From Convolutriloba macropyga (Eukaryota): a stretch of 64,000 nucleotides of DNA. The notes below the pieces were generated by a model. That model saw only the letters and a program-made list of their open reading frames with translations. It was not told where the DNA came from and ran no database searches. This document shows, piece after piece, positions 4,915 through 35,142 of the stretch (position 1 is the first letter of the stretch; the number at the start of each line of letters is the position of its first letter). The stretch lies in NCBI RefSeq assembly GCF_964194025.1, contig NC_134480.1, positions 13,950,001 to 14,014,000 on the forward strand. The letters are read 5' to 3'. Position numbers and translations under genes: made by a program.

Positions 4915-5299
4915 GTATACTCTTTCTTGTTGTCTAGAGCTAGTGCAGTTTATGTTATTCAACTCTTCTTTGATTGGCTGAGAATTTATACATTACAGAC
5001 CATTGCCAGGGACGATTCGAAATATTTAAAAGGGTAAACTGGCCATGGTAAACTAAATTATTTGCTACCTTCGATCAATGATTACCATATCAGGGAACTG
5101 AGAATACTGACGCTATATGTATTAGTTTAGAGTAAATCTCCTTGAAATGATATGGTATCGACGCAATTAACAGGTAATTATAAAAGCAATTTTGATAAGC
5201 AAAACCCAGTTTTTTTCTAAAAGAATTTAGCCAGCATATACCAGGTACTATGGGCGTTAGTCTTAGTGTTTGAGATATATAACTTTTGAAATAACCAAC

Positions 5300-5540
5300 T
5301 TTTGCGTGTATAGATGCAGTGAGCTGCAGTTATGACCCAATAAGGACTCAAAATAGCCCCTCCGCAGAAGTCCATTCTGTCAAACAGAACCCGAACATAG
5401 AAAGGCCTATCTGGACTGTCAATCCCATTGATAATGTTAGTACGCAAAACACTGCTGAAGTTTCGACACAAAACTGTCGATTGTTGGCATAAAATTGTGA
5501 AATAAACCAATAGTTTTCTGAAATCTAATTCAACTTTCAT
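5300..5540 (-). CDS. Trypsin/chymotrypsin-family (S1) serine protease, first coding exon (rest of gene not identified in window)
   Basis: ATG at 5540; hydrophobic signal-like N-terminus; IING mature N-terminus; CGGAILSPYWVITAAHC catalytic-His motif; phase-1 donor A|GTTGGT just after AAHC. Confidence 0.85.
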
Positions 5541-6068
5541 AACTTTCAAGACAGTAACTCGTCAATTGAGCAGTATTTATTTAACGTAAAGTTCATGATA
5601 GCAAGAGCCTAATGTTTTGGAAAATTTTCTTTCATTTCGAACTTTTACAGTGCGAGATTGATGAACAACAATTTGTTGGTCGGACCGTAGCGTTTCTTAT
5701 TTCATTACGAATCAATTATTCTGCGCTTATTATTTGACAATGAACATTTACTTGTTTATTGATTGTTTTAATTTGTGAAAACCGACATTAGAACTCTTCA
5801 AGGCTTAATGTAGTACAATCGTTGAACTAATTGAACTTCGATTTTGGGTGGTCATGCTACTAGCCTTTAAACTTCGCAAAAAATGCTGTTGTAAAAAACG
5901 AGCATGCAAACTAAAGCGGAATCAAATAACAGAATTTTAATAATTAAGTTGAATTCTTGCACGTCTGTTCAGTCAAGCATTTTAGTTTCGTTCAGAGGAG
6001 TACATACGCGACGAATCCTTTGGTGTAGTTAGAATATAGCGTATCAACTCGGATTTATCTATTAGTAT

Positions 6069-6366
6069 TGTAGCAGTAGAAATACTGGATGTACACCTCC
6101 ATCCAACCAGAGACTGAGAAGACACTATTTTCTTTTATATAGAGAGAACTTCACTAACTATAACCAGTCTATTAGTTAGATACACCATGTGTATACTCTT
6201 GACTCCGGTGCTGTACTTTAAGAAGTATTAATAGAAGTTTATCTTCAGTGTTTATTGAGTCGGTTAGTCTGAGAGATATAGGTAAGCCTACTTCGCGCGC
6301 AGAAATAAGTAGCCCAAACTCTTTACACCTTAAGGCTGTAAAAGAAGCCCATCTCGGACTGCCTTA
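6069..6366 (+). mobile_element. 5' LTR (duplicated copy), 298 bp, TGTAGCAG...CTGCCTTA
   Basis: Matches 17986-18283; ~93% identical by eye to 29265-29568; preceded by GTAT (6065-6068). Confidence 0.9.
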
Positions 6367-6569
6367 ACTTGTGCGACCAGTGAGTTAACAAACTGAGTTA
6401 ACAATCCGTAAAAAGAACTCACACAAAACACCCCTTTCTCTATTGAGAAAGAAACTTAGAACTAGATTACATAGTTTTTTACTCTTTATCTACTTAAAAC
6501 TTAAGAAAAGTGGGAACACAAGACAAATAAAACAAAAACTACTAATATTTAAACAAAGAAACAAATAAA

Positions 6570-12500: not shown

Positions 12501-14752
12501 GCAATTCCTAATTCAAAAAACCTTTCTATATCCTCTGCGATGCCTCTAATTATGGCATTGAAGCCGCATTTCTCCAAAAAAATCAATTTGGGAAAATGGA
12601 GCTAGTGTCAACAAACTAGCTAGTGTCAGACTTTCAACCATTCTTCGAGAGTGCTATGCAATAATTCATGCGCTCTCCGAATATGAGTTCCTTATTCAAG
12701 GATCAAACATCCAATTATACTATATACCGATCACAAACCACTTCTCTTCCTATTCACACAAAAGAATAAAACAAATCACAGAGTTTACAAATTTCAACTA
12801 ATATTAATGGAACTTCCAAACTTACACATAGTTTGGACAAAGAGGAAAACCTTTCACTTCCGGATCTATTAGGTCGTTCACTCACGACCAAAACACAAGA
12901 CGAACACCGTTATAGAACAGTTGAGATTCCAGAATCTAAAAAATTCTTTATGAAACACAATCAAAACACACAACCTATACAGTGCCAATATTCTGTATCA
13001 AAAAAATACTTTAATACAGTATCCACAGACACTAATGTAGAGTCACCACACTTTCCAATCTATTTGCAGATTAAAGATAACTATTTTAAAGTACAATTAG
13101 AAAATGATCTCTATCTTCTTGTTTCGTATCACGAATTTCAAACCAAAGCACAATCTTTGGAACACATGCATCAACACAAAATCACTTCTTTCCAGAAACT
13201 TACCCTATTATACAACACACGGATGTTACATTAAAAATAAATAAAAAAGAACCCTTTAACCAATTTAATCAAGATGCCAACAACGCCGAATTAATAAGCA
13301 ACATAAAATTTTCACTACCAGTAATGGATAACTTTACACCAAAAACCCCCACCATTTACAACTATTTTTAAAATGAACAGACAGAGCCAAATGATACACT
13401 CATATATGAAGCACAAAAACGAAACCCAGAAATTAGACAACTCTTTAGAAACGTTACAAAAATTAACCTTCCACCCCTTCATTAACTATCCGTGCAAACA
13501 AGGGACTGCTACACTATTAGCGACGCTTCGAAAATTTAAGCGTAAATGAAGCCAATCACCTCTTGTATTATATACAAGAAACAACATCTTCAAAAATCAG
13601 TTTACCACTCTCCCTTGTTTGAGTAATATTTTACATTGAACATTCTCACGATCTCGCAGGTCACCATGGCCGCGAAAAAACACACGCTACTATTACACAC
13701 AATTAAATCCATGCCAAACCTCCTCATGGCTCCACAACAGCCATTCTTAGAAGTTTCACCATACCTCAATCACCGTATTTCAATGGACGCAAAAGACCCA
13801 ATCTCCCCGTCTTCTGATGGGAAATCTTACGTGTATGTCATTGTAGACGCATTTACACTCTATATTGTATTTCACCCTTCCCCCAGAAATGATGCCACTA
13901 AAGCACTCACTGTATTATTTGACCACTGGGTTGTAAAATTTGGAATACCAGAGATTTTAGTAACTGGTAAATGAAATGAATATATTAACGGAGAATTTGC
14001 ACACTTCTGTCGCACATATAATGTACAATTCAAACCACGAACACCATACGCACCATGTTCTAATGGACGTGTAGAAAACAGCAATCGCCAAATAAATACA
14101 TTTCTCCGCACAGTTCTAGACTCAAAAAATGACACACGGTCAGAAAAAATAAAATATTTCCCTTTGCATTCAACTCACAAGTTCGAACCAATATGAATTT
14201 TTCATCATGTGAACTTAAGTTTGGCCAAAAATCAAAAAACCCATAATGTTCAATCTATCTTCCGCTACAGATAGCTTTGGAAATTGTAAACCTTCTTTAG
14301 ATTCACCTTGTAATACTTTACCTAAACTTACACAAACTGACCATTTAGGTCATCGCCCAAAAATTAAAAGAATACAGAAAACAACCTTTACACATTGGTT
14401 TCTCAATCGTGAAAAGATATACTCGGAAGTTTATAATGAAGTCCACCATTACTTAAATCAAAATAAACTTTTACGCACATTTATTTATCGCCCTTTTGGA
14501 ACGGCACAAACATTTAAAATTAATACGTACGTTTTAGTTGTAAATGAAACAAATTGGAATATCCAAAAAGATCCAACCACAAAAAATGGACCTTGAAATA
14601 ATTGACACCCCCACGTCAGGTACTTATAAACTAGAAGATTTTTCTGGTAAACAAATCACTCGCCATAGAAGTAACATTGTACCATATTACCTGAAAGAAC
14701 TTCTCATTCAAGAACAAGTGGAAAAGTATTTCTCGGATAACTCCTTATTAAA
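6570..14752 (+). pseudogene. Decayed gag-pol, copy 1 (stops, frameshifts, RT core absent, RH-IN part doubled)
   Basis: CKKCSRSGHSFSTC knuckle; FLLDSGA protease; CDAS/YTDHKP RNase H; HSHDLAGHHG, ISMD, IVDAF, SNGRVENSNR integrase. Confidence 0.9.
9794..14293. repeat. Internal 2248-bp tandem duplication (9794-12041 / 12042-14293)
   Basis: ORFs 10100/12348, 10585/12833 and 11388/13636 encode identical proteins at offset 2248; 4-bp ACCT microhomology at the junction (12042-12045). Confidence 0.95.
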
Positions 14753-16131
14753 GTTAGGAATAACAAAAAAATTGACAAAATTTGATTGAGAAAAAATAAA
14801 TTCGAACTATTTTGCCTTATTTTACTTTAAAAAAACCTCCGCAAAAAATGTTAAAAATTCACATTTTTTATTAATGATAATTTTAAGAACGTTATTTGAG
14901 GAGTTATTCGTGGGTTGTGTCAATGTCGGGTTAAATGTTGTAAGTGCTGAAGTATTTGGTGTAAAGGTTAAAGGGGATTAAAAAGGCTAAGTATACATAA
15001 TCGTGTGGTGGGAGCTAGATGGATAGTTAGGAAAAAGTTTGGGGGTGGGGGCAGGGCTAGGTGACGATAGTCGGGGAAGCGCTAGCTATGACTTGGCGGT
15101 TAATTATATGAAATGTGATGATTATATGAGAAAATTGGGTAGCTGGACTCTTAATGTATCATGCCTTATCAACACAGCTTTTTCAGTTTGAGTAATAAAA
15201 AGGTTCTCAATATTAAAATGGGAATCAAGCTGTGTTATCTTTATGCTTCGGTCAAAAAATTTAAAACAGAAATAATTGTTCGAGAAGAAAGAAGTCAGAA
15301 CTTTAAGTTAATGTCAGATACTCCACTTCAACTTTTTGGCTAATTCAACAATGTAATTTATTGAATTATTCCTCGTCACGGGTCCTCGTTTCGGCAACAT
15401 GTACAAAACATTTTTTTAAGAAGAAGCTGACATTTTTGTCTTGGCTTATCAAACCACTTTTTCCCCAAATAATCTTAAAACGATCTATACAACAATCTTA
15501 AAATTAAAATATAATGCTGAAGCAACGTAATGTTCAGTTAAATTAGAAAAATTTAGAAATCAAAAAGATATCCTCAGTGACTCAGGGAATTTTTTCTAGT
15601 CTTGTTGCGATAAGATTTTGATAAAAGGGAAATTTTCTGTTCAAAGTTTCATCAAAACTTACACAAGAAAATTTGAAATTTCAATTAAAACTTTTGGCGT
15701 CAGATATATATATATATATATATATCACATCCTATATATAAATTTAAAATTTTTTATTTATTATCTAAATGACTCTCAAAAGATGTGTATTAGAGTCATT
15801 AAGATCCTGGAAGAACTCATGACACAAATTACTCGTTTGTAAAGAACTTTTTTCCTGTAAGATTATTTAAAATATTTTTATTTGCACGAAAATAACAAGG
15901 CATTGCATATAGCGCCGTTAAGTTTACAAAAATTGTTCACTTTTTCTATAAAAGGTAACAGACTTGTTATCTAACTTAACAAAATTTAAAAATTACATTT
16001 GACGTTGCTTTACAAAATTTTCCTGAAAAAATAGAATAGCTTATATCCAAAAACCTGTCGAGAATAATTCAATGCCCAGAATGAGGTCTGCAACACAAGA
16101 CAGATATTGGCGTGATTGGCTTGGGTCGCAG

Positions 16132-16856
16132 ACAGGGGGGTCGGGTGCAACCCAACTCAATGGTCTGGAAAAAAATTGGGTGGCGCCCTCCCTCTGGCCA
16201 ATACCAATTTTTGGTCCATACGTTCTATCATATACCCACATTCTGGTATCTTTGGTCTGGCCAATACCCACATTTTGGTCTGTTTGGTCTGGCCATAGCG
16301 CATATTCAAGTTCTGTAGGTCCAGTAAAAAAGCCGGTCCTCTACAAATTTTATAAAAATATTGGCCAATCATTGGTAACCAACATCAACTTCTAGATGAT
16401 TATTTACTTCATCAAAATAATTTCTGAAATCCGCATTGGTCTTCAAATCGGCTTTTTAACTAATTTTTTAAAATTCTTATTTTCATTTCTCGTTCAGAAA
16501 TAATTTACAAACTTTATTGGATGCTTCTGCACGTTTAAGTAAGTGTAGCTAATGGTGTGGCTCAGGGTCTGTTCCGTCTCGCGAGAGGTTTGCACAATGG
16601 TCTGGCCTAAGGTCTGCTCCGTTTGGCCAATGATCTGGACGACGGTCTGGCCAATGATCTGGACGATGGTCTGGCCTAGGGTCCGTCCCGTCTGGCCAAT
16701 TGTCTGGACAAACTCTGTTCAGTCTGACCAATGGTGGCCAAACTCTGTTCGGTCTGGTCAATACCTATTCTTGGTTATGGTCAGTCTAGAGCCCTACTGT
16801 GCGCGACCCAAGTCGATCTGGCCAATACCTGTCTCGGGTGGTGGACCTTATCCTGT
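16132..16856. mobile_element. Duplicate of the 4190-4914 repeat element
   Basis: Near-identical copy carried by the segmental duplication. Confidence 0.5.
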
Positions 16857-17241
16857 GTATACTCTTTCTTGTTGTCTAGAGCTAGTGCAGTTTATGTTAT
16901 TCAACTCTTCTTTGATTGGCTGAGAATTTATACATTACAGACCATTGCCAGGGACGATTCGAAATATTTAAAAGGGTAAACTGGCCATGGTAAACTAAAT
17001 TATTTGCTACCTTCGATCAATGATTACCATATCAGGGAACTGAGAATACTGACGCTATATGTATTAGTTTAGAGTAAATCTCCTTGAAATGATATGGTAT
17101 CGACGCAATTAACAGGTAATTATAAAAGCAATTTTGATAAGCAAAACCCAGTTTTTTTCTAAAAGAATTTAGCCAGCATATACCAGGTACTATGGGCGTT
17201 AGTCTTAGTGTTTGAGATATATAACTTTTGAAATAACCAAC

Positions 17242-17458
17242 TTTTGCGTGTATAGATGCAGTGAGCTGCAGTTATGACCCAATAAGGACTCAAAATAGCC
17301 CCTCCGCAGAAGTCCATTCTGTCAAACAGAACCCGAACAATCCTATTGATAATGTTAGTACGCAAAACACTGCTGAAGTTTCGACACAAAACTGTCGATT
17401 GTTGGCATAAAATTGTGAAATAAACCAATAGTTTTCTGAAATCTAATTCAACTTTCAT
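17242..17458 (-). pseudogene. Duplicated serine protease exon 1 with an in-frame 24-bp deletion
   Basis: Same as 5300-5540 except IINGIDSPDRPFYVRV has become IINRIVRV. Confidence 0.75.
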
Positions 17459-17985
17459 AACTTTCAAGACAGTAACTCGTCAATTGAGCAGTATTTATTT
17501 AACGTAAAGTTCATGAAAGCAAGAGCCTAATGTTTTGGAAAATTTTCTTTCATTTCGAACTTTTACAGTGCGAGATTGATGAACAACAATTTGTTGGTCG
17601 GACCGTAGCGTTTCTTATTTCATTACGAATCAATTATTCTGCGCTTTTTATTTGACAATGAACATTTACTTGTTTATTGATTGTTTTAATTTGTGAAAAC
17701 CGACATTAGAACTCTTCAAGGCTTAATGTAGTACAATCGTTGAACTAATTGAACTTCGATTTTGGGTGGTCATGCTACTAGCCTTTAAACTTCGCAAAAA
17801 ATGCTGTTGTAAAAACCAGCATGCAAACTAAAGCGGAATCAAATAACAGAATTTTAATAATTAAGTTGAATTCTTGCACGTCTGTTCAGTCAAGCATTTT
17901 AGTTTCGTTCAGAGGAGTACATACGCGACGAATCCTTTGGTGTAGTTAGAATATAGCGTATCAACTCGGATTTATCTATTAGTAT

Positions 17986-18283
17986 TGTAGCAGTAGAAAT
18001 ACTGGATGTACACCTCCATCCAACCAGAGACTGAGAAGACACTATTTTCTTTTATATAGAGAGAACTTCACTAACTATAACCAGTCTATTAGTTAGATAC
18101 ACCATGTGTATACTCTTGACTCCGGTGCTGTACTTTAAGAAGTATTAATAGAAGTTTATCTTCAGTGTTTATTGAGTCGGTTAGTCTGAGAGATATAGGT
18201 AAGCCTACTTCGCGCGCAGAAATAAGTAGCCCAAACTCTTTACACCTTAAGGCTGTAAAAGAAGCCCATCTCGGACTGCCTTA
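17986..18283 (+). mobile_element. 5' LTR
   Basis: Starts TG after GTAT; TATA-like tttatatag ~18051; similarity to the 3' LTR ends at CTGCCTTA. Confidence 0.9.
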
Positions 18284-18486
18284 ACTTGTGCGACCAGTGA
18301 GTTAACAAACTGAGTTAACAATCCGTAAAAAGAACTCACACAAAACACCCCTTTCTCTATTGAGAAAGAAACTTAGAACAAGATTACATAGTTTTTTACT
18401 CTTTATCTACTTAAAACTTAAGAAAAGTGGGAACACAAGACAAATAAAACAAAAACTACTAATATTTAAACAAAGAAACAAATAAA

Positions 18487-21400
18487 ATGGATCATCACGT
18501 TGATCAACCCTCCTCCCACGTACCGACACACTCGAATGAATTACAACTAGTTGTTCTTACACAACAGAACAAACGTCTAATACGCGAAATTTTACCTTTT
18601 GAAGTTAAACACTATAGGCACCAGGACAAGCTAAACATACTCCTAAGCACAGCAAAACAGGTCAAAGGCCACTATTTTGCAGTAGAGCAACGGCCTCTCC
18701 TTTCATTATCAGAAATGGTATCACAGGTTTCACGAACCGCCTTTCTTTCATATTTAGCTGAAATTTACGGAGCTCAACTCACAAAGGGCTCAGTTCTTTT
18801 CATTTGTGATCTTTTAACAAACACATATACTTCTCTCATATATGACACTTTATTTAATCCACTATCTGATACACTATTTGAATTCCTGAACGGAGTATGG
18901 TCAGAAATGCAAACCTCGGATAGAGAAGTGGTATTTCGAAAAAATTCTTTTGAATTTCCCTAACGTCTCGCATCCACACTTAATGCTAATGCATCACAAG
19001 CACGGAAAAAAAGCGTACACAAGATCGCTCGACAGGAGATAGAGGGCTTCACCCACCTTCTTACAAAAATATAACTTCTGTAAAAGATGCAGACCTAGAC
19101 GATAAAGAGATTCTCGATTCTCTTAACTTTTCTCTTGGTATATACACAGATATTGGAAAAGTTTGGTAAGACACATTTTTCCTACCACAAAGCTAAAAGC
19201 AGACACATTCACACAAATACTACCTTAACAACCTGAGACACACCATTATATTTATGATTCACGCTGGTTTCCACAAAACTTTGTAAATTTTCCGGAAATA
19301 CCCTCTGAAAATATTCAAAAACTCACCATTAATCGCCAAAATATAGAAAAAAACCATAACGCAGAAACTCAAACATTTACTTGTACAAACATTCCAGAAA
19401 ATACAAACACTTCTCTGCAGGCTTAACCAAAAGAGAAAATGGATAATAAAATTCATTCTCAACAAACAGACATCGGTCTAATTGAGACTACAAAAACAGA
19501 TTTTAAATCAGAATTATTAGATGATGGAACACTTTTTTCATCACATACGGTAAATACACTAATTGACCTTGAAAGTAAAGATCACAACAAAAATCAGAAT
19601 AACAATAATAATAATATTACAAGCAATACTACTAACAACACACATAATTATCAAAATCACCAACACAGACAACCCGTGAATTCGACTGAATTAACACAAA
19701 ATTCAGATCCACTAAACACAGTCGTACCTACATTACCAATTATGACTACACCCCTACCATTTTAACTCTGAACCAATTATTCTAAATATTTCAATGTAAC
19801 CTACACTAACTACTAATCAATATATACAGATAACTCCACAACAATTCGTAATTATTTTTAGACAATTAAACTCACAAAATACACAACAAACCACAAATGC
19901 ACCGACCCCTTTTTATTTACAAGCAGCGTCTACACAAACGATATCAGCTGTAATTCGCAGAAATAACCAAATGATGTACCCTTACCTGAGAGGCTCGGTA
20001 CCCATGCAACAATCTTTGACTATTAAGACCATTTGATGGTACTGACCCTATTTACACAACAGAAGATTTTTTAAATGCTATCACAGCAAATATGTTAATG
20101 ACAGCATGACCAGAACAGACTGATTCATCATATCACGAAGCCTGGATCATGAAACGAATTGCCATGATTCAAGCAGTCCTAATTGGACCAGCACAACAAT
20201 AGCATTCACACCTTCCACTCGATATAAAAAGAATTGGCAAGCGTTTTACCGTGAACTCCAAAAAATCATTTGATAATCAACAATCGCAAACACAAGCGAA
20301 ATTATTCTTAGAGAGCATAACACGTGCCTCCGGTGAACTAATTAAAACATAAACATTTCCAATTGAACAAATGACTCGAAAAGCATATGATAATAGTGCT
20401 CCAGATAAGCGCAATGCACAAATGAATGACGCACTTGTCAAACCACTCGATCCGCAAATAGCCTGAATAGCACTAAAAACGATTGCAAATCACAAATCAA
20501 CTGCTTAGGAACCACAGCGTTAATTCGCACAATTGTTAGAAAAAATACACCAGGAGGATATCACAAGAACACAAATAAACAGACATAAACTTAATAAAAA
20601 TTCCACCTTTTCTTCCTCAATTAATAAACTTTCCTTAGAAATTGATAACCTCACAGTAGACGATGTACATATGATGGAACAGGATATCGTTCACGGGATC
20701 AATGTAATACGACACAAGTAATCAAATGATTCAAATTTTAAAGGAAAACCACTATTCTTAAAATTTTGCAAGAAATGTTCACGCTCAGGACATAGTTTTT
20801 CTACATGCCCTCATAAAAGATACTCGAAACCACTTTACAAACCAAATTTTCAAAAACAAACCTTTAATCAAGCAATGAAAGGTAATCAGAAGCTTCCAAA
20901 CAGACAAGTCACGTCAAATAATATGACGGGTAAACCATTACCCTTCTCACACCGTTCTAGAAGCAAAAGTAGAGAACATCGTCATAATTCACGACATAGA
21001 AGCCCAATTAAATTTTCACAACCTAACTCAAAACCTTACTATAAATAGCAATTTTAAACCACCGATTAGAAGTGGTTACCATACCCAAGAACATCAAACT
21101 CACAAAATACCCCTAACTATAATTCTAGACCTCAATAACCTCACTATAATAGAGATCGGAATCGTTCACGACAACTCTTCTCACGTAATCAACTTCGTAA
21201 TGTTTGAAACTAAATTTATTCACTTCTAGATCAAGAACAAACAGACAACACAACGTCTAATACTGAAAATACAGACACACTGAATGTCTCTGAGGAAACA
21301 CTACTCGAACAACAGTTTAATGATTTACTTTTAGAATTAAATCAGGATACCCAGGGCGAATATTTCAATTGCCATGAGGAATGTAACACTTTCACAGAAG

Positions 21401-24400
21401 AATACATTCTTTCTAATTCATCTAAAAGCAATATTTGGGTACTCCCACTAACAATGTATACACAACAAACAACCGATCATACAAAAACAATTTCTCCACC
21501 ACCTCTTGAAACAGATTTTCTATTAGATTCTGGCGCAACACTTAATATATTAATCAGCGACAATTCGAATGAAATTAAAAAATATCACAAATTACAACTA
21601 AAAGCATCAACTTCATCTCACACGCTCATCTCACACGCTCGAGAGTTAAAAAAAAATGATACAAAATTAATAAAAATTTATGATTCTTCAACTAAACCAC
21701 TCCCGTTCTACTCAGTTAAATTTTTGGAACACCAAACACGAAATAATCACATACTACCACTCAAATCCATGATAGACGGATTTCTCAAATTATAACCACC
21801 AGAAAGGAAGAAGAAATCCATAACTATGTAGGATTTCTTATGTTTTTTTCAAAATATTTCTATAATTTACAAGTCATTTTCAGATCTTTTTATTTCCAAC
21901 TCCGGGATACTACAGATTTCAATTGGACACCCGAATTACAACACACATTTGATAGATTAAAAAAGGAACTTACAGTCGCAAAACTTCGCCTCGCAATTCC
22001 TAATTCAAAAAAACCTTTCTATATCCTCTGCGATGCCTCTAATTATGGCATTGAAGCCGAATTTCTCCAAAAAAATCAATTTGGGAAAATGGAGCTAGTG
22101 TCAACAAACTAGCTAGTGTCAGACTTTCAACCATTCTTCGAGAGTGCTATGCAATAATTCATGCGCTCTCCGAATATGAGTTCCTTATTCAAGGATCAAA
22201 CATCCAATTATACTATATACCGATCACAAACCACTTCTCTTCCTATTCACACAAAAGAATAAAACAAATCACAGAGTTTACAAATTTCAACTAATATTAA
22301 TGGAACTTCCAAACTTACACATAGTTTGGACAAAGAGGAAAACCTTTCACTTCCGGATCTATTAAGTCGTTCACTCACGACCAAAACACAAGACGAACAC
22401 CGTTATAGAACAGTTGAGATTCCAGAATCTAAAAAATTCTTTATGAAACACAATCAAAACACACAACCTATACAGTGCCAATATTCTGTATCAAAAAAAA
22501 ACTTTAATACAGTATCCACAGACACTAATGTAGAGTCACCACACTTTCCAATCTATTTGCAGATTAAAGATAACTATTTTAAAGTACAATTAGAAAATGA
22601 TCTCTATCTTCTTGTTTCGTATCACGAATTTCAAACCAAAGCACAATCTTTGGAACACATGCATCAACACAAAATCACTTCTTTCCAGAAACTTACCCTA
22701 TTATACAACACACGGATGTTACATTAAAAATAAATAAAAAAGAACCCTTTAACCAATTTAATCAAGATGCCAACAACGCCGAATTAATAAGCAACATAAA
22801 ATTTTCACTACCAGTAATGGATAACTTTACACCAAAAACCCCCACCATTTACAACTATTTTTAAAATGAACAGACAGAGCCAAATGATACACTCATATAT
22901 GAAGCACAAAAACGAAACCCAGAAATTAGACAACTCTTTAGAAACGTTACAAAAATTAACCTTCCACCCCTTCATTAACTATCCGTGCAAACAAGGGACT
23001 GCTACACTATTAGCGACGCTTCGAAAATTTAAGCGTAAATGAAGCCAATCACCTCTTGTATTATATACAAGAAACAACATCTTCAAAAATCAGTGTACCA
23101 CTCTCCCTTCTTTGAGTAATATTTTACATTGAACATTCTCACGATCTCGCAGGTCACCATGGCCGCGAAAAAACACACGCTACTATTACACACAATTAAA
23201 TCCATGCCAAACCTCCTCATGGCTCCACAACAGCCATTCTTAGAAGTTTCACCATACCTCAATCACCGTATTTCAATGGACGCAAAAGACCCAATCTCCC
23301 CGTCTTCTGATGGGAAATCTTACGTGTATGTCATTGTAGACGCATTTACACTCTATATTGTATTTCACCCTTCCCCCAGAAATGATGCCACTAAAGCACT
23401 CACTGTATTATTTGACCACTGGGTTGTAAAATTTGGAATACCAGAGATTTTAGTAACTGGTAAATGAAATGAATATATTAACGGAGAATTTGCACACTTC
23501 TGTCGCACATATAATGTACAATTCAAACCACGAACACCATACGCACCATGTTCTAATGGACGTGTAGAAAACAGCAATCGCCAAATAAATACATTTCTCC
23601 GCACAGTTCTAGACTCAAAAAATGACACACGGTCAGAAAAAATAAAATATTTCCCTTTGCATTCAACTCACAAGTTCGAACCAATATGAATTTTTCATCA
23701 TGTGAACTTAAGTTTGGCCAAAAATCAAAAAACCCATAATGTTCAATCTATCTTCCGCTACAGATAGCTTTGGAAATTGTAAACCTTCTTTAGATTCACC
23801 TTGTAATACTTTACCTAAACATACACAAACTGACCATTTAGGTCATCGCCCAAAAATTAAAAGAATACAGAAAACAACCTTTACACATTGGTTTCTCAAT
23901 CGTGAAAAGATATACTCGGAAGTTTATAATGAAGTCCACCATTACTTAAATCAAAATAAACTTTTACGCACATTTATTTATCGCCCTTTTGGAACGGCAC
24001 AAACCTTTAAAATTAATACGTACGTTTTAGTTGTAAATGAAACAAATTGGAATATCCAAAAAGATCCAACCACAAAAAATGGACCTTGAAATAATTGACA
24101 CCCCCACGTCAGGTACTTATAAACTAGAAGATTTTTCTGGTAAACAAATCACTCGCCATAGAAGTAACATTGTACCATATTACCTGAAAGAACTTCTCAT
24201 TCAAGAACAAGTGGAAAAGTATTTCTCGGATAACTCCTTATTAAAACTCAATTCGAAAAAGCGGACAATCACCAAGTGTCTCGTTTATTCTAGACAACCT
24301 AGACATACCATCCACAGATGACCTTTGCCGCCCGACACCTTATAACCTGTATGAAATACCCAAAAACACTTCGGAAAACTACACTACTAGAGACACTCGT

Positions 24401-24481
24401 CTTAGACGCCAACCGATGAGAGACTACAGAGTCTTTATACCACAATCAAAAATTTCGGCTTCACGAACGACGAATTTGTAA
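18487..24481 (+). pseudogene. Decayed gag-pro-pol, copy 2
   Basis: CCHC 20767-20808; RS-rich tract ~20950-21005; DSG 21526-21534; RT C-terminal/connection (VKFLEHQ...FNWTPELQHTFDRLKKEL); RH LCDASNYG ~22030 and YTDHKP; IN core ~23130-23620; C-terminal tail to TAA 24479-24481. Confidence 0.9.
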
Positions 24482-25336
24482 AAACATTCACACTTTACTG
24501 TTAAACGCACAAAATCACACTCCTCGCTTTCATTAGCAGAACACAACTTAGCATAACACGCTAAATACCTAGTAAATATAAATATAATATAAATAGATTT
24601 CTCTCGTTCTCTTATACGAGAGAGAAAATTCGGATAGATCTTTCACTCCTCTCCCCCATAATATAATTACTTTCATTGGGAAAATTATTCAAACTCTTTA
24701 ATATTGTAAACAAAGCACACGGAATATCTTTTCACCTGCTACTCTAGAAGAACCACAAAACCCCTCCATCAGGAAATGAAAGGAAGGGAATCACAGGCCA
24801 TTCCCCACAAAAATATTAGGAAGGAAACTAACTAAAAATTAAGTTAACAACCGAACCACAGCTCGGTCTGGGAAGAATTCCCTAATCTCAATTATTTGCC
24901 AAGATATGATTCGATAATTTTTTTCTGCCGAACAAAAAGTCGTGGTCAGGATAGATCATATCGTCTAAAATCACTTCTTAGTCCACCGCTCTTGCAACCT
25001 ATTTGTTTCTTCCTCCTTCACATCTCTTTGCAATACTTCATCTTGCATTTTCTCTCTTCTATATACACTTAGAAAAAATTTCTTCTGAGTTCTTTCTTCA
25101 ATTCACCACTTGAAGAAATTTTCTTTTCTACGCTTCTCAATAACTTTCACTTCTTCTCTTTCATCTTAGAAGAACTGTCTCACAGTACAGTTTTTTCCTC
25201 TAATCGTCAACCAGCAAATCAGTTTTTACTTCGTGCAGCACTTTAGCTGAAAACAGGCACACCAACTATACTCCAATTCTCCACTTTCAGTCTCACAGTA
25301 CTGTAAGCCACCCTGTAGCCTAAATCTAACACAGGT

Positions 25337-28300
25337 ATGCACATTACTTCACAGCACAGACTGGAAGTATTATTTGAAAAAACACCATACGCGAAAACTT
25401 TTCGTTATTTTCAGATGTTTAAACCTAAACAGATCCGTTTTGAAGAAATTGTTTACAATCTAGACCATATTTTATACTCACACACTTGTTGTGAATGGGT
25501 TTTCCCTATTAGAGACTTTAATAACGAACATATAGCTTTTTTCTAACTTCCAATATTTCCACCGCAAGGCCACACCAAAACTCTCTGAGATTCTGTATAC
25601 GGATATTGTATACAGATTAATCTTGACCCCATTCCAGCCTCTTACGATATAAAATATATTACAGAAACTCTTAGGTTGGATGAACCATAACAACAACTCG
25701 CAAAGCAGCAACAGCAACAACTCACAAAATGAAACTGTATATCCGCACACTATCTTTTCTTTCGAACGCAAAGACTATGCAATTGCTGAATTAATAACAG
25801 TCTTTTCTGCTGATTTTTTAGATCTAATCCATCTCCATAATGTCATCCCACCAGAGTAATCCTTCGCAGAAATCAGAGTTAGTGGTAGTGTTCCTACTTT
25901 AAATCTATTAATATTTGTTATCCCCACCTCCACTGACTACAAAATTTGTTACTGCGATAATTGCCCCACTTTGGGCCAGAGATTATCGTCACAATTGCGT
26001 CCTCTAATCAGCAAACCAACACTAACCCAAGTGCTCCCCCGTCTCAGAATCACCTAGTTGCTCACACACCGAAGCAACTAAACAATCCACCCCCAAAATC
26101 ATCATTTAAACTTAATAAAAAATCGCAAACACAAGAAACAGAGGAACACCCATACTCAGTCATTACTACTGCCAACTCTATAGATAGGCCTTGTCCTACC
26201 GGACACTCCCCCCACTTTACCCCACAAACAGTAATCCCGTATCCCCCATCAAAAACAAACGCACAAACACCAAACGCAAACACAACAACACCTCTACCAA
26301 TTAAATACACAGACTTTATTACCCTATTCTGGTTTTCTAACGTACACAACACGTCAACCACCAACAATTATACCACCTCCATCACGAGCGCCACAACCCA
26401 AATTGCTTAATAGTTCAAAGACTCTACGATTCTCCAAACAACCTATAAATTTTGCAAACACAAATAAAACTCATAGCTCTGAATTGCCACAGCCAATTCA
26501 AACTGTTTCAAATGTTATTGATACACCACAAGACATCAGCTTAATTTCCGAGACTTCTATATTGGACCTACTCAATTCTCATTTTTCTTCACCTACTATA
26601 TCACAAATTGCGAATAATCCTCTTAATTCGCCACAGGGACCAATTTCTGATTTTGAAGGCTTACTCTCACAAGCATATTGGAATCACTCTTTTATTATAG
26701 TCAACTCATCACCATTCTTTCAAAATTCACTACCACTCAATTTAAAAGTTAGAACACCCATAACCACACTCAGCTCTAGTTCACCAACATCTAATCCCGA
26801 TCAAAATTCTCACCATTGTATCGGAAATTATCCAGATACTACTAGAACTTATCCAAGTTTACCACTGAAACTTGATCCAAATTTTTTTGTTCCCCCTCCT
26901 GCCCTTTTCGGAGACCACAATAAAGGCGAACAACTCCATAATTGCGCTAAACAAAAAATTTCTAAATCAGATAAGATCACACCAGTACAAAAACAACGAG
27001 CATAGGACCTAATAAAACAATCGAAAATTACTTTTTCGGTTGAAATTGTTGTAGAACAAGACAAGTTAATTTTTCACGCACAAGCTGCCGCACCGCCTAT
27101 TTTTGGAGGAAAAACAAATCCTTCACCAGTTATTTGTCAAGAAATTCACTATAAATTTGATAGATATACCAAAAACACGGCAGGATATTTTGTCTTCTAC
27201 AACCAATTAAAGTAGATCAACACAATATTTCCACACCTAAAACAGGCGTACAAGAACTGATAGTCACACATTATGACTCTTCCCCAAAGCACATCACAAA
27301 TATGCAGTATTACAAGATCAATAAAATAGGCGAATGAAATAACAAACCAGCAGAATTCCAAACCCTTTCCGGCCAAGTGCAATTCTTTTCTCAAATTTGC
27401 AGACTCCATGGACGCGCTTATGCCATACACGCTAAACTTAGTGATAAAGAAAGCTTCTGTCACAAAATCGAAATTAAAAGAGGCTTTAAGTTTGATCACG
27501 ATAATTGGTATGTCAACAATATGGAAAGACAATTCTTTCCCACAGAAATAGAAACTCGTAGAAAACTTGCAGAGATTAGTCTCATTAGTAAACATTACTA
27601 TCACACACAAATAATACAATTTGATATACTCGACGACCCACGCTGGCAAGCGAATATCGAAGCCAAACAAAGCCATTTTCAACTTGATCGCTACCGACCT
27701 TTTGCATTCCAACACGTAAGCATGGTCAATAATCCAAGGGACCATGAAGGGATCCCAAACGCCACACAAGGAATTACCCACCGGTTCCAAGGAACCAACT
27801 TCCGGTTTCATGAATTCACCAATCCTCTCGCTATTAATACCCTCCAAGAAATTCATGTGCCGGAACGTATTAATTATACCTCAACTCCACCTCAGTATAC
27901 ACTCAAACCCACAGCAAGTTCTGCCCTCTTGGAGAACTCAAGAACGAATATGTTCATGAGGTGCGGGATAGCGATCTTCCACTAGCATGTCTCCACTTCC
28001 CTATTAATCATTGTTTCACAGAATGATTCTGGCACCAGTCAAAATACATCTTTGCTCTTGCAGATCGCCCGAATGACTACCTTAATACCTCAATGCTTCA
28101 CACAATGCACAACTATCTATTCGTGCAACACCACCTTCACCGAACTAATCCAATCATCCACATGAATTGGCGTCTACAGTACGCCAACACCAAATTAACG
28201 TCACCTTACTACATGAATTACAACTACATAATTCAACCCAAATTACGCGAAAACCAACCGCCCCATCCTCGTTCCAATCGAATACCTACAGTGTGTAGAA

Positions 28301-28623
28301 GGAGGCTCCACGAAGTGTACCCATGGCCACACGTTCAATCTCCTCTACAGGGATTGGTTGGCGGATAAACTAGATAATCGCAAACCCTCCCACAAAGAAA
28401 CCCAGATTTTAAACCAACTCCTTGCTTTGCACTCCCACTGCAACGTTGACCTCTGTAACCGTCTCCTCGCTGCTTGTTTGGAGCTGATCCGGAATTTGTA
28501 GCATTCTTCCCCGATCCAGTTAATCGAGCTCCAGACTTTGAGTTCGAGTACCGGACGTAGGTCACAGCCCTACACCACATATCGGGCTCACAAACCCTCC
28601 AATCCGAGACTCACAATTCTTGA
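25337..28623 (+). pseudogene. Degenerate long accessory ORF (ORF3) of the Gypsy element, unknown function
   Basis: Chain of same-strand fragments 25337-25546, 25961-26410, 26403-27005, 27377-27985, 28093-28368, joined by protein-like frames broken by isolated stops and frameshifts; central P/S/T-rich linker. Confidence 0.6.
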
Positions 28624-28838
28624 AAGACTCCTTTAAACTCTTAATATTGTCTTTTTTTTCTTTAATATTTCTTTCTGTATCACTTCTATATAACTTGTTT
28701 CTTGTATATATTCCTTTCTTCCTTTACACAATTAAAGATCAGGATCAGTTCTTTTGTTCTTCCTCTCGGTCGGGACCTACTAAAGAAAGCATTAAATATA
28801 ATTTATAGATTTAATAGGGAAAGGAGCTCCCACGGTAG

Positions 28839-29375
28839 CTAAATGATGGATTTCCACCAGAAGGTAAGCTGGTAAATCCGACCGGTTCAAACCTTGTACC
28901 AGGTGGAGATAAACAGAAATCCCCCCCGTCCAAACCAGACAGAGACTACGGACTACAAGCGATCCTCCAACTGGGAACAAATTCTCACTACTTGAGAGCA
29001 GTTGGGCATACTCTAACAGGACAGACGTCACTGGCCAGCACACCCTGTAACTGGCACCCTAACTGGTTCAACAATCCAGATGAACCCCTCACTGACACCA
29101 CCAGTCATCACTTACTGACGAGGACATTAGACGACGACACAAGTCTCAACTTCACTTCAGAGAGGACACAACTCTTCACCCAACCTTTCAACGAGGATGA
29201 CACATCCAACGTATTTCTGCTAGAGTTCACATATTCGGATTTAGAACTCTCGACCCCGGATGGATGTAGCAGTAGAAATACTGGATGTACACCTCCATCC
29301 AATCAGAGACTCAGAAGACACTATTCTCTTTTATATAGAGAGAACTTCGCTAACTATAACCAGTCTATTAGTTAG
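28839..29375 (+). CDS. Accessory frame (ORF4, 178 codons, no ATG) overlapping the first 111 nt of the 3' LTR
   Basis: Stop-free from 28839 (after TAG 28836) to TAG 29373-29375: LNDGFPPEGKLVNPTG...WHPNWFNNPDEP...ELSTPDG|CSSRNTG. Confidence 0.5.
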   Translation, partial: LNDGFPPEGKLVNPTGSNLVPGGDKQKSPPSKPDRDYGLQAILQLGTNSHYLRAVGHTLTGQTSLASTPCNWHPNWFNNPDEPLTDTTSHHLLTRTLDDDTSLNFTSERTQLFTQPFNEDDTSNVFLLEFTYSDLELSTPDGCSSRNTGCTPPSNQRLRRHYSLLYRENFANYNQSIS

Positions 29376-29568
29376 ATACACCATGTGTATACTCTTGACT
29401 CCGGTGCTGTACTTTATTACCACCGTATTAATAGAATGTTATCTTCAGTGTTTTACTGAGTCGGTTAGTCTGAGAGATATAGGTAAGCCTACTTCGCGCG
29501 CAGAAATCAGTAGCCCTAGCTCTTTATACTTTAAGGCTGAAAAAGGAGCCCATCTCGGGTCTGCTTTA
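29265..29568 (+). mobile_element. 3' LTR, 304 bp
   Basis: TGTAGCAG...CTGCTTTA followed by GTAT; ~16 substitutions and 3 indels relative to the 5' LTR. Confidence 0.9.
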
Positions 29569-30849
29569 GTATCGTCGGCTGGTAATATGATCACCGGTAT
29601 ACTTATTGAAGCTTGTATGAGCGATCAAAATTTTTTTATGCTAACTAGGTCTCATATTTCTTGATATACTTTTACGTACAAAACAGCGCCCATAATACGT
29701 TTGCTGAATTAATAGGACGGTATACGTGAGAATTACTTTTGCACATTATGCATAAATTATAAAACGCAATTTCTAAAGACTATTATAAATATTTTTCACT
29801 TAAAATGTTTTAGTCCAATCCGAAGGGGCAAGGTTTTTAATTAAGTTCTGAGATCTCAAATCGGACAGTTCAATGGATAAAACGAGCTTTAAAAATTTAT
29901 TCATAATGAGGCATGATGACTTAAAACAATTATTGAGTATTCTTTAGACTGGCATTAAGTATTTTTTTAAAAAAAAATTTTGTTGCCATTTGTCATTAGT
30001 GACAGAGTGACCGTGCGAAGTAAAAAAAATAACTAGATTTTTTCATTCGTTTTTTTTTGTGTTTTCCAATTTTTCGCCAGTTAGGCCTTAACAAAAGTTG
30101 AGCCAATTGGTGTCGCAATACTTTTCAGAACCATTTATACTTAATCAGCGTCAAAACACAGCATCGTGAAAAAGCAATTGTCGTCAAAGTGCATTTAAAA
30201 AATCCGTACACTTGAATAACAATAATTAAAGTAAAGTTCAATATAATTTCAATGCTTATTGCAACGAAAAATCAATTGAAGCAGTTTTGTGAATCTTTCT
30301 GCTTGTTTTGTCAAAAATGTGTTATTTATTTTACTGACGGAAATATTTGTTCTTACATTGTTCAAATACTCCTCTGTTTTGTCTACAAAATTCTGCAGGA
30401 GTATTTTTAATGAAAAATTTTTCAAACTCAAACCAAAGAATAGCAAGTTATTCTCCAACGCAGATTTTACTATATATCATAAAACACAAATTGCTCTTCA
30501 AATTGATGCGTCTATTTTTGAAAACGTCTGAATTAAAAATATAAATGATGTCTATGATTCAACTCTAAAAGTATTTTGCTTCCAAAAACTACGAAATGCT
30601 CAAGAGGCTCACAAAGTAACAGAAATTCATAAATCAAATCTTATTTTTCGATTACAATAAATTCAGTTATCACTGGCCACTGGTGCTAGGAAACAAAACT
30701 AAAAAAACAATTCGTTCTATAAAAGGATCTCACAATGAGCAAACGAAAAACTTTTTTTAAATAAATTATGAGCCTCTTGGGCTCTAAGTCACACAGGAAA
30801 CAGTAGAACAATTTGTTTAAAGAACAAATTTTTCCATATAAAATACCAA

Positions 30850-31300
30850 AAAAGTTTTTCCGATCTATTTAGATTGTATAAGCGTTTTGGTCGTACCATC
30901 CAACTCATCAATTTAATTATGAAAACTAATAACATAGTTGCTGGCCACTTTGTGACCGCCTAAACTTTGAATCTGCACTCTGCCCACTTTTTCTGAACTT
31001 TTAGGAAGAGCTCAGAATATTTTTTTCCCGGAAGAAACTTCAATAATTTAAAAAAATACAATATTTAGGTATTTAGAAGGTTTCGGTACATGACTTGATA
31101 TCCGTTTACTTGGCTTGATATCTGTTTGCCATTATTTCAATATATAATCCTTAACTGTTTTTTTTCAGCATTACATGAACCTATATAAAAAAGATTGAAC
31201 TTATTGTGGCATTTTTATCTTTTGATCAGTCTATTAAAATCAACTCTTTGCAATTGTATTGTGATAAAAATCCATTACATAAAATCAACGCATGATTTCT
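30850..31300 (+). pseudogene. Possible Polinton/Maverick adenain-like cysteine protease relic (second copy ~33535-33985)
   Basis: Broken frames read VFP..LIMKTNNIVAGHFVTA..SAHFF.TF..SEYFF and later Q...STLC.LYC..IHY, matching the adenain His, FFD and Q-x-C motif order; heavily decayed. Confidence 0.35.
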
Positions 31301-32147
31301 ACAGGTTAAGTTCCCGATACCTCACTTCAACCCAATCGTGTGAACGCAATCTTAAACACATTGAAATTTTTCATCATTAGATTTGGAAAACTATATAAAT
31401 AAATATGGTTCACGTTTTAATCGTTTGACTTATCTTTACATTTTTGTAGTCAAAATTGTTAACAAGCTCAAATCTTTGAGCTTAAATGTAATCCACAAAA
31501 GAAATGAAGAACACACTTGCAAACATAGTCTTTGATCATTGTTTACGTTCAAGTGCGAATTTTTACAAACTTTCTGGAAGAAAAAATCGTGAAGTAGATA
31601 TTATTGGTTTTAAAAAAACCGTTTTGTGTTTTTTCTGCAATAATGCCAGCATGTAATACCCAAAACAATAACAGCTTAATGAGATTTCACTGATTCTCCC
31701 GTTTTGATCAATTTTTGTCGTTTCATTTGCGAAATACTCTTTATGTATTAACACATGGGTTCTTAGTTCGTAGCAATTCCCTTACCCTCAAACAAATTAC
31801 GGCTACAAAGTTTCTGTTTCCATTTTTAGTTTGAATATATTCAGAATATAGTTTCCGTGTTTTCCGGATACGTCAAATCTTGTGTTTTGAAATTTATGAA
31901 AGTTGTGAATTTTAATTCGTGGCAACTTTATGGAAAACTTTTGAGGCAACATTATTGATTTATTATTATTAAGTAACATTATTAAGTAACAAAATAACAA
32001 GAAATAAAGAGTTTGTTTATAGTTACAAAAGAGAACATGGAGAAGAATTTCATCAAAATAATGGATTGAGATTGCATAGTTTGTTTTGGATCCAACCATA
32101 GCTAGTGAAAACATTTTCTTATATTTACAGTTTCTGTTTTTTTGTTT

Positions 32148-32260
32148 CTGAGTCGGTTAGTCTGAGAGATATAGGTAAGCCTACTTCGCGCGCAGAAATC
32201 AGTAGCCCTAGCTCTTTATACTTTAAGGCTGAAAAAGGAGCCCATCTCGGGTCTGCCTTA
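32148..32260 (+). mobile_element. Partial LTR (3' 113 bp) created by the tandem duplication
   Basis: ctgagtcgg...ctgcctta followed by the same GTAT flank. Confidence 0.85.
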
Positions 32261-35142
32261 GTATCGTCGGCTGGTAATATGATCACCGGTATACTTATTG
32301 AAGCTTGTATGAGCGATCAAAAATTTTTTATGCTAACTAGGTCTTATATTTCTTGATATACTTTTACGTACAAAACAGCGCCCATAATACGTTTGCTGAA
32401 TTAATAGGACGGTATACGTGAGAATTACTTTTGCACATTTTGCATAAATTATAAAACGCAATTTCTAAAGACTATTATAAATATTTTTCACTTAAAATGT
32501 TTTAGTCCAATCCGAAGGGGCAAGGTTTTTAATTAAGTTCTGAGATCTCAAATCGGACAGTTCAATGGATAAAACGAGCTTTAAAAATTTATTCATAATG
32601 AGGCATGATGACTTAAAACAATTATTGAGTATTCTTTAGACTGGCATTAAGTAATTTTTTAAAAAAAAATTTTGTTGCCATTTGTCATTAGTGACAGAGT
32701 GACCGTGCGAAGTAAAAAAAATAACTAGATTTTTTCATTCGTTTTTTTTTGTGTTTTCCAATTTTTCGCCAGTTAGGCCTTAACAAAAGTTGAGCCAATT
32801 GGTGTCGCAATACTTTTCAGAACCATTTATACTTAATCAGCGTCAAAACACAGCATCGTGAAAAAGCAATTGTCGTCAAAGTGCATTAAAAAATCCGTAC
32901 ACTTGAATAACAATAATTAAAGTAAAGTTCAATATAATTTCAATGCTTATTGCAACGAAAAATCAATTGAAGCAGTTTTGTGAATCTTTCTGCTTGTTTT
33001 GTCAAAAATGTGTTATTTATTTTACTGACGGAAATATTTGTTCTTACATTGTTCAAATACTCCTCTGTTTTGTCTACAAAATTCTGCAGGAGTATTTTTA
33101 ATGAAAAATTTTTCAAACTCAAACCAATGAATAGCAAGTTATTCTCCAACGCAGATTTTACTATATATCATAAAACACAAATTGCTCTTCAAATTGATGC
33201 GTCTATTTTTGAAAACGTCTGAATTAAAAATATTAATGATGTCTATGATTCAACTCTAAAAGTATTTTGCTTCCAAAAACTACGAATTGCTCAAGAGGCT
33301 CACAAAGTAACAGAAATTCATAAATCAAATCTTATTTTTCGATTACAATAAATTCAGTTATCACTGGCCACTGGTGCTAGGAAACAAAACTAAAAAAAAC
33401 AATTCGTTCTATAAAAGAATCTCACAATGAGCAAACGAAAAACTTTTTTTTATAAATTATGGGCCTCTAAGTCACACAGGAAACAGTAGAACAATTTGTT
33501 TAAAAAACAAATTTTTCCATATAAAATACCAAAAAAGTTTTTCCGATCTATTTAGATTGTATAAGCGTTTTGGTCGTACCATCCAACTCATCAATTTAAT
33601 TATGAAAACTAATAACATAGTTGCTGGCCACTTTGTGACCGCATAAACTTTGAATCTGCACTCTGCCCACTTTTTCTGAACTTTTAGGAAGAGCTCAGAA
33701 TATTTTTTTCCCGGAAGAAACTTCAATAATTTAAAAAAATACAATATTTAGGTATTTAGAAGGTTTCGGTACATGACTTGATATCCGTTTACTTGGCTTG
33801 ATATCTGTTTGCCATTATTTCAATATATAATCCTTAACTGTTTTTTTTCAGTATTACATGAACCTATATAAAAAAGATTGAACTTATTGTGGCATTTTTA
33901 TCTTTTCATCAGTGTATTACAATCAACTCTTTGCAATTGTATTGTGATAAAAATCCATTACATAAAATCAACGCATGATTTCTTCAGGTTAAGTTCTCGA
34001 TAACTCACTTCAACCCAATCGTGTGAACGCAATCATAAACGCATTGAAATTTTTCATCATTAGATTTGGAAAACTATATAAATAAATATGGTTCACGTTT
34101 TAATCGTGTGACTTATCCTTAAATTTTTGTAGTCAAAATTGTTAACAAGCTCAAATCTTTGAGCTTAAATGTAAGCCACAAAAGAAATGAAGAACACACT
34201 TGCAAACATAGTCTTTGATCATTGTTTACGTTCAAGTGCGAATTTTTACAAACTTTCTGGAAGAAAAAATCGTCAAGTAGATATTATTGGTTTTAAAAAA
34301 ACCGTTTTGTTTTTTTCTGCAATAATGCCAGCATATAATACCCAAAACAATAACAGCTTAATGAGATTTCACTCATTCTCCCGTTTTGATCAATTTTTCT
34401 CGTTTCATTTGCGAAGTACTCTTTATGTATTAACACATGGGTTCTTAGTTCATAGCAATTCCCTTACCCTCAAACAAATTACGGCTACAATGTTTCTGTT
34501 TCCTTTTTTAGTTTGAATATATTCAGAATATACTTTCCGTGTTTTCCGGATACGTCAAATCTTGTGTTTTGAAATATATGAAAGTTGTGAATTTTAATTT
34601 GTGGCAACTTTATGGAAAACTTTTGAGGCAACATGATTGATTCATTGTAAGTAACAAAATAACAAGAAATAAAGAGTTTGTTTATAGTTACAAAAGAGAA
34701 CTTGGAGAAGAATTTCATCAAAATAATGGATTGAGATTGCATAGTTTGTTTGGGATCCAACCATAGTTAGTTAAAACATTTTCTTATATTTACAGTTTCT
34801 GTTTTTTTTTCATCTTCATTTTCGTTATTTGTTCAGAACAGTTCAACTCCAATTTTTTTTGCAGCATTTTGATCACACAACTTTGATTTGAAAGCACTTC
34901 TGAAAATCTTACCAACAACAATGTAAAACAAGCAATTAAAAAATACGTCAGCCATAGCTGCTGCCTCTGCGGTACAACCAACATACTTCAAATACTACAT
35001 TGTATTTCGAACTGGTGTTATGCAAAACCTAAAGCCTTCTCTTCCGTTAATTGGTTAAAATATTTAATTTAATGTCTATTGTAAAAAGCTGTTAACCTTT
35101 TTTTACTAATATACAGTATATACAGCCGACATTTGTTAGCTG

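Follow-up and report, generated by a model that had tools for sequence, protein, structure and literature searches.

Known relatives

Gypsy elements bearing an env gene are known already: those with an env of the gB or chuvirus type are widespread (PMC13524379), and extra open reading frames (ORFs), internal env promoters and giant size have all been published for the group (PMC5408684, PMC4402516, PMC6431247; here and below, what is said of a cited paper extends to the available portions of its text). The element considered here lies at positions 17986-29568 of a stretch of 64,000 nucleotides from Convolutriloba macropyga (the window; contig NC_134480.1, 13,950,001 to 14,014,000, forward strand). 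A first-pass annotation of the window had leaned on a rule that Ty3/gypsy elements end after the integrase (IN) or add a single env, which the publications just cited show to be overstated. The element is a dead, internally deleted copy of a 16.5 kb Ty3/gypsy-type family, and we think it likely, at a probability of roughly 0.7, that this family has a class III env flanked by three or four conserved accessory genes, which are likely to be alternatively spliced in the manner of complex retroviruses. What appears to be new is this accessory gene set around the env, the existing errantivirus catalogue having been compared by description only.

Like the HSV (herpes simplex virus)/gB-type 'ancient errantiviruses' (PMC13524379), the present element and its two sister families have a Ty3/gypsy Pol with canonical RNase H, a class III env after pol, many copies, a primer-binding site of the tRNA type and an invertebrate host. 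Those elements are described as gag-pol-env, whereas the present families have 2.8-5.5 kb with two to four genes between pol and env, another gene after env and a length of 16-19 kb; the two groups are set apart by description, not by their Pol sequences. The screen by Chary and Hayashi (PMC13524379) prefiltered for an env no more than 1 kb from pol and for a region of up to 10 kb, with extensions of 3-5 kb made by hand; elements of the present kind can be overlooked when env surveys filter by length.

Oikopleura Tor3 and Tor4 are also divergent and gypsy-like, and express env from a subgenomic RNA that is spliced from the long terminal repeat (LTR) or begins at an internal promoter behind pol, but they are described with a third ORF only and no accessory genes around env (PMC4402516). 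In the bdelloid elements Juno, Vesta and TelKA, likewise gypsy-like, from invertebrates and with extra ORFs behind pol, ORF3 is an env or encodes a GDSL or DEDDy enzyme (PMC5408684), whereas the present families have several orphan genes, assigned to no Pfam family, flanking env. Planarian Burro and plant Ogre are giant gypsy elements with surplus coding capacity, Burro having env homology and an accessory ORF; however, Burro holds host-derived domains and env in one polyprotein of 4,873 amino acids (aa) between gag and pol, and the present families have short LTRs and separate genes after pol (PMC6431247). Our literature search, outside which Repbase, Dfam and GyDB lay, found no gypsy lineage in which several orphan genes under selection flank a class III env on either side and are common to families at 40-59% reverse transcriptase (RT) identity.

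Complex retroviruses (foamy viruses, lentiviruses, epsilonretroviruses) have separate accessory genes, and vpu and env are carried on a two-gene RNA; to have accessory genes under selection both before and after env is seen as characteristic of the complex retroviruses of vertebrates. The present families resemble them in that env has accessory genes on either side, leader exons are predicted and so is a two-gene env RNA (cf. vpu-env). The families differ in their RT, to which the nearest solved structure is that of Ty3, in having just one canonical RNase H, placed after RT, and in a class III env; nor did any homology to tas, bel2 or nef show up in them. Such genes, kept over 40% RT identity in gypsy elements of 16-19 kb, would show convergent evolution of the complex-retrovirus design outside Retroviridae. 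The families also make testable the coupling of a retrotransposon Gag without known matrix domain to a class III env, and they provide three orphan protein families (A1-type, A3 and ORF-C) with many intact natural copies.

The family and the copy in the window

A search of the 1.18 Gb assembly with 27200-28500 as query yielded 768 first-look candidates, and 40 of these were scored; the main matches outside the window all end near query base 566 (position 27765). Twenty sibling regions, ten picked by IN or 3' matches and ten by env matches, were compared with the window: the stretch before env is collinear in 20/20 and that after env in 19/20, and all 19 of the latter have 1.7-3.9 kb of extra DNA at 27765. 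The region behind pol is therefore a trait of the family and not local cargo, as the first-pass annotation had supposed. The full gene order of this family, here called F1, can be read from two young copies (16,469 and 16,619 bp), each with LTRs that are 100% identical. Gag-pol, of about 2,530 codons, is followed by a non-coding leader of about 0.87 kb, by A1 with 128 aa, A2 with about 115 aa and A3 with 430 codons counted from an ATT; then come env, encoding 881 aa, ORF-C, encoding about 620 aa, a non-coding stretch of 0.7 kb and the LTR.

The window copy has LTRs at 17986-18283 and 29265-29568 (91.8% identity), with ends of the form TG...TA rather than TG...CA, and lies between 4-bp target-site duplications (TSDs; GTAT, 17982-17985 and 29569-29572), a length of TSD found at most sibling insertions as well. 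These boundaries and the length of 11,583 bp bear out the first-pass description, which was also right about the end of gag-pol at 24481 (stop codon 24479-24481), the missing RT core and the 4.8 kb (4,783 bp) between pol and the 3' LTR. All features are on the forward strand. The primer-binding site (18286-18300) differs by one base from the form in the siblings and in the sister family F2. The decayed gag-pol (18487-24481) encodes a long Gag with a CCHC knuckle, protease (PR), RNase H (RH) and IN with a GPY/SH3 tail; it lacks residues ~1139-1564 of the young copy, the RT core, through a deletion at 21614/21710. In a young copy, Gag has about 550 residues upstream of the capsid domain that are under purifying selection and have no Pfam match, and two inserts in gag-pol, one between PR and RT (about 250 aa) and one between RH and IN (200 aa), are likewise unannotated.

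When the young-copy proteins are mapped on the window, the 'one long decayed ORF3' of the first-pass annotation resolves into pieces of five genes, one of them env. The non-coding leader (24482-25336), with a conserved imperfect hairpin near 24600, is followed by A1 (25337-25732, the protein mapping to 25337-25684), which has premature stops, and by A2 (25680-26036, protein at 25743-26036), a small overlapping accessory frame. A3 (25994-27203) is frameshifted and its C-terminus has gone with a 90-bp deletion, and the env remnant (27203-27766) has lost its leader and body. The post-env accessory gene ORF-C survives as residues ~294-620 of 622 (27764-28560, protein at 27764-28554). The 3' non-coding region (28561-29264) has a pyrimidine tract near 28640-28770 and a conserved donor-like motif at 28859; this tract and the hairpin were both correctly noticed at first pass. 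Five internal deletions account for this copy: about 1.5 kb in RT, about 90 bp at 27200, one at 27765 that removed about 3 kb of env and ORF-C, and two smaller ones of 130 bp at 28090 and 64 bp at 28243, both within the ORF-C remnant. Every frame behind pol is broken, and none reaches a Pfam cut-off.

The envelope gene

The first-pass annotation had taken the 3' region to be 'non-env', which is contradicted by 27203-27766: this stretch matches residues 24-211 of the 881-aa F1 Env at 69%, and the F1 Env itself matches PF24664 (the Pfam family Monjiviricetes_fusion) above cut-off, at E 9e-14. The sister families gave matches to the same model at 6e-14 (F2) and 2e-38 (F4). Env has a signal or leader helix, one C-terminal transmembrane (TM) helix and spaced cysteines. 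By its profile matches, then, the env of these families encodes a class III (Monjiviricetes/gB-type) fusion protein. The names given to database relatives of Env and A3, and to close relatives of Pol, are uninformative.

Accessory genes

Selection was judged from pairwise ratios of nonsynonymous to synonymous differences (pN/pS) against up to seven F1 copies, the window copy included. RT-RH gave 0.08-0.15 and two non-coding controls 0.69-1.5 (0.72-1.5 for the leader). Against these references stand env at 0.14-0.28, A1 at 0.13-0.22, A3 at 0.07-0.35 in its N-terminal and 0.03-0.12 in its C-terminal part, ORF-C at 0.21-0.30 and 0.07-0.20 in the corresponding parts, and A2 at 0.17-0.58. A1, A3 and ORF-C are accordingly under purifying selection like pol, and A2 more weakly so; the F2 genes show the same pattern. 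This bears out the earlier supposition of several accessory genes in the 3' region. The check proposed with it, a ratio of nonsynonymous to synonymous substitution rates (dN/dS) below 1 for both ORF3 and ORF4, came out positive for genes of the ORF3 region (A1, A3, ORF-C) and negative for ORF4.

The latter, at 28839-29375, had been likened to nef because it overlaps the 3' LTR. It is a stop-to-stop frame of 178 codons without methionine, lying mostly in the 3' non-coding region, with no third-position excess against any of 14 copies and dN/dS of 0.53-1.12, and neither of the two youngest copies has an open frame of 100 aa at the site; we reject it as a gene, and with it the nef-like feature.

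ORF-C has 191 relatives among protein representatives, with identities down to 28-36%, and two full-length distant ones share its disordered N-terminal half and conserved C-terminal domain. For A3, which has a PSAP motif, a linker rich in S, T and P and a conserved C-terminal domain of about 140 aa, there are 133 relatives, down to 34% identity; its late-domain motifs are PSAP and PPxY in F1 and PPxY in F2. Neither A1, A2, A3 and ORF-C nor their alignments gave a Pfam match above cut-off, sequence profile searches of the PDB with the accessory proteins gave nothing significant, the ESM Atlas held no usable match for ORF-C or A3, and a profile comparison of the A1 family with A3 found no match. 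The single-sequence fold of ORF-C reached a predicted local distance difference test score (pLDDT) of only 32; the A3 model is better (pLDDT 69, predicted template modelling score 0.60).

Sister families

F2 was found in the same genome through a distant ORF-C, 71 of its 80 scored ORF-C copies being free of stops. Seven of eight fetched regions show gag-pol, a long spacer, A3 or pieces of it, env and ORF-C, and a full element measures 19,330 bp with 99.7% identical LTRs. F2 repeats the F1 layout A1-A3-env-ORF-C at identities of 59% (RT-RH), 41% (A3), 28% (env) and 35% (ORF-C). Between its A1 and A3 are tiny hydrophobic ORFs (50-60 aa) and a methionine-less frame of 115 codons under selection. 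Overall, F2 is a family of 19.3 kb elements in which the LTRs are nearly identical and many genes remain open. An internally deleted F2 copy of 6.3 kb (L132:3030-9326; LTRs 99.5% identical) keeps only ORF-C and the C-terminal half of env; its deletion junction is at the primer-binding site, not at a splice site.

F4, reached through a distant Pol, is 40% identical to F1 in RT-RH. Three of four fetched regions are elements of 18 kb (18.2-18.4 kb) with env, in which gag and pol are in separate frames and Env has a long, multi-helix hydrophobic leader; the fourth is a related 12.8 kb element with env and a single 172-aa ORF. F4 has up to five paralogous ORFs of 104-131 aa, three upstream of env and two beyond a post-env ORF of 274 aa, with pN/pS of 0.08-0.42 from few changes. 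F1 A1 is homologous to one of them, d2 (z 8.7, 0/500 shuffles; phmmer 8e-5 among 1,541 frames), and F2 A1 to another, u1 (z 8.1, 0/500 shuffles), so that A1 belongs to a paralogue family common to F1, F2 and F4. A likeness by eye between the F4 post-env ORF and ORF-C failed in hidden Markov model (HMM) and HHalign tests, and we discarded it. LTR ends of TG...TA and 4-bp TSDs are common to all three families.

Expression signals and alternative readings

The LTRs of F1, F2 and F4 contain a donor motif, AGGTAAG (at 18196 in the window, the predicted major splice donor), which occurred in 55, 126 and 149 of 5000 shuffles, respectively (1-3%); it is absent from the fourth LTR examined, that of the 12.8 kb element. 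An acceptor-like site 63 nucleotides upstream of A1 in F1 is kept in 10/10 other alignable copies (21 tried), a donor-like CAG/GT overlaps the A1 start, and TTTTTAG lies within A2; in the window, a predicted acceptor (25289-25290) and a predicted donor (25334/25335) would delimit a short leader exon, and the conserved predicted acceptor in A2 is at 25820-25821. In F1, F2 and one F4 copy, TTTTAG, also acceptor-like, stands immediately 5' of the ORF that comes first after env. No TTTYAG was found from the A3 start up to env in either of two F1 copies, nor in one of two F2 copies.

A3 overlaps the env ATG in F1 and F2. It is free of methionine over 424-434 codons (F1) and 376 codons (F2), the other ORFs having 1.2-1.9%, and its start in both families is an ATT in strong context, having a purine at -3 and a G at +4; this ATT is kept in 19 of the 20 F1 copies that could be mapped (22 tried). 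Out-of-frame ATGs are depleted in 4/4 A3 frames (codon-shuffle P 0.0002-0.01), P being below 0.05 in none of five control frames. These features agree with spliced RNAs on which A3 is weakly started at an AUU and scanning ribosomes leak past to env. Unspliced RNA would give Gag-Pol, and the donor in the 5' LTR would be joined to the short leader exon ahead of A1; retention of the next intron would yield A1, and splicing onward to the acceptor within A2 a two-gene RNA, on which A3 would be weakly started at AUU while ribosomes continue scanning as far as the env AUG. ORF-C would be served by splicing to the acceptor that directly follows env. Env would let the particle enter neighbouring cells. 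Our best guess for A3, because of its late-domain motifs and its fixed coupling to env, is that it most likely acts as a budding adaptor replacing a matrix protein; for ORF-C and the small A1-type proteins, a part in regulation or in antagonising host defence is most probable.

Several points weigh against this picture. Since siblings were picked through IN and the 3' region or through env, long copies are over-represented among them, and each of the young F1 copies carries a few breaks. HMM and HHalign comparisons detected neither A3 nor ORF-C in F4, so neither is universal in the clade. With a stricter null, the synonymous shuffle, the ATG depletion stays significant in F2 (P 0.001-0.004) and is lost in F1 (P 0.30-0.39), and the ATT context of F1 overlaps the A2 frame, another possible cause of its conservation. 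In F2 the selected 115-codon frame precedes A3 in frame across one TGA, so read-through is possible. Finally, splicing, AUU initiation and expression are all deduced from sequence.

Three other explanations may be set beside it. That the 3' region is a set of nested insertions, captured host DNA unique to this locus or neutral cargo might be suggested by the broken frames of the window copy and their failure to reach any Pfam cut-off, but the collinear siblings, the many genomic candidates, a strong third-position bias and the homologous genes in the sister families make it very improbable; it is refuted for A1, A3, env and ORF-C, and holds only for the non-coding 'ORF4'. It is also conceivable, if unlikely, that A3 and env were captured jointly from a negative-strand RNA virus as a matrix-plus-glycoprotein module, A3 being a diverged M protein. 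M-G is the typical gene order of such viruses, A3 directly precedes and overlaps env in F1 and F2 and has late-domain motifs, and eight of the 50 top viral rows in a Foldseek search with the A3 model are named rhabdovirus matrix proteins. None of these rows is significant, however (E 0.12-0.69, TM-score about 0.2, root-mean-square deviation 16-19), motifs of the late-domain type arise by chance in proteins rich in P, S and T, and F4 has env without detectable A3.

A stronger competitor, though still a doubtful one, is that an internal promoter behind pol drives the env and accessory RNAs, as in Tor4b. The non-coding DNA after pol, from 0.86 kb (F1) to about 3 kb (F2, F4), has conserved blocks and a hairpin, and the env RNAs of Tor3b/4b begin at an internal promoter (PMC4402516). 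The TATA-like tract from which the first-pass annotation had read an internal promoter is, however, not conserved: it sits in a variable AT stretch and TATAAA is lost in most of 21 copies, so that we reject a conserved TATA box there and regard the promoter as hypothetical. The conservation of the acceptor-like site before A1 and the LTR donors in three families also argue for splicing instead, and the two modes can coexist, as in foamy viruses.

Classification

The elements have the hallmarks of Ty3/gypsy: paired LTRs, primer-binding site, short TSD, the order Gag-PR-RT-RH-IN, a CX2CX4HX4C knuckle and a GPY/F tail. Among solved structures RT is best matched by Ty3 (7e-29), ahead of foamy virus and caulimovirus RT (about 1e-17), and one gypsy-type RNase H with catalytic motifs directly follows RT. 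An RT-RH tree was made with FastTree from 62 rows (35 of 97 dropped as near-redundant; no curated GyDB references, no outgroup). In it, F1, F2, F4 and unnamed database relatives form one clade on a long stem (SH support 100), separate from the named gypsy-like matches at 25-31% identity; within the limits of such a tree, the accessory genes belong, as had been suspected, to a long-branched gypsy lineage. A metagenome scan with a related Pol as query found nothing.

A gypsy pol with a class III env downstream of it, the Env showing a signal peptide, a TM helix and the cysteine pattern, would place the families with gB/chuvirus-type errantiviruses, but their pol-env gaps of 2.8 kb (F1), ~3.6-5.5 kb (F2) and ~3.9 kb (F4), with genes inside, depart from the three-ORF layout with a gap of about 1 kb. 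Accessory genes under purifying selection in addition to gag, pol and env are shared with complex retroviruses; a nef-like ORF overlapping the 3' LTR is not. Odin and the lokiretroviruses (PMC9040795) and Troyka (PMC12440569) are, like the present families, divergent animal LTR lineages, and the lokiretrovirus env also resembles a fusion protein of negative-strand viruses (PMC9040795). In contrast to the Odin and lokiretrovirus arrangement of a degenerate tether and second RNase H (PMC9040795), a second RNase H before IN gave no match by sequence in the present families. Odin and Troyka are described without env, and Troyka with CG..CG termini, 3-bp TSDs and a longer, CX2CX8-10HX4C knuckle (PMC9040795, PMC12440569), none of which is found here; the present element is not Odin, loki or Troyka. 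A bolder reading, to which we would give somewhat less than even odds, is that the families form an undescribed clade of 'complex' enveloped metaviruses, endogenous RNA viruses in which a gypsy engine independently gained complexity like that of lentiviruses or foamy viruses. Such elements would splice through leader exons, translate a matrix-like budding protein, started at AUU, together with a class III env, have a regulator encoded behind env and expand a set of small counter-defence paralogues; one family looks recently active.

Other features of the window

A tandem duplication takes in the 5' flank, LTR and gag-pol (2819-14752 against 14756-24245, 99.3-99.7% identical), with a second LTR at 6069 that has the same flank; the upstream duplicate retains about 270 bp behind PR that are absent from the copy at 17986. 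At the other end, 29453-32143 is duplicated at 32145-34808 (97%). Neither represents an independent insertion; they arose as local duplications or are an assembly artefact. On the reverse strand, 17159-17479 has a frame with what we take to be a trypsin-like serine protease motif, and the element may sit in an intron of this serine-protease-like host gene.

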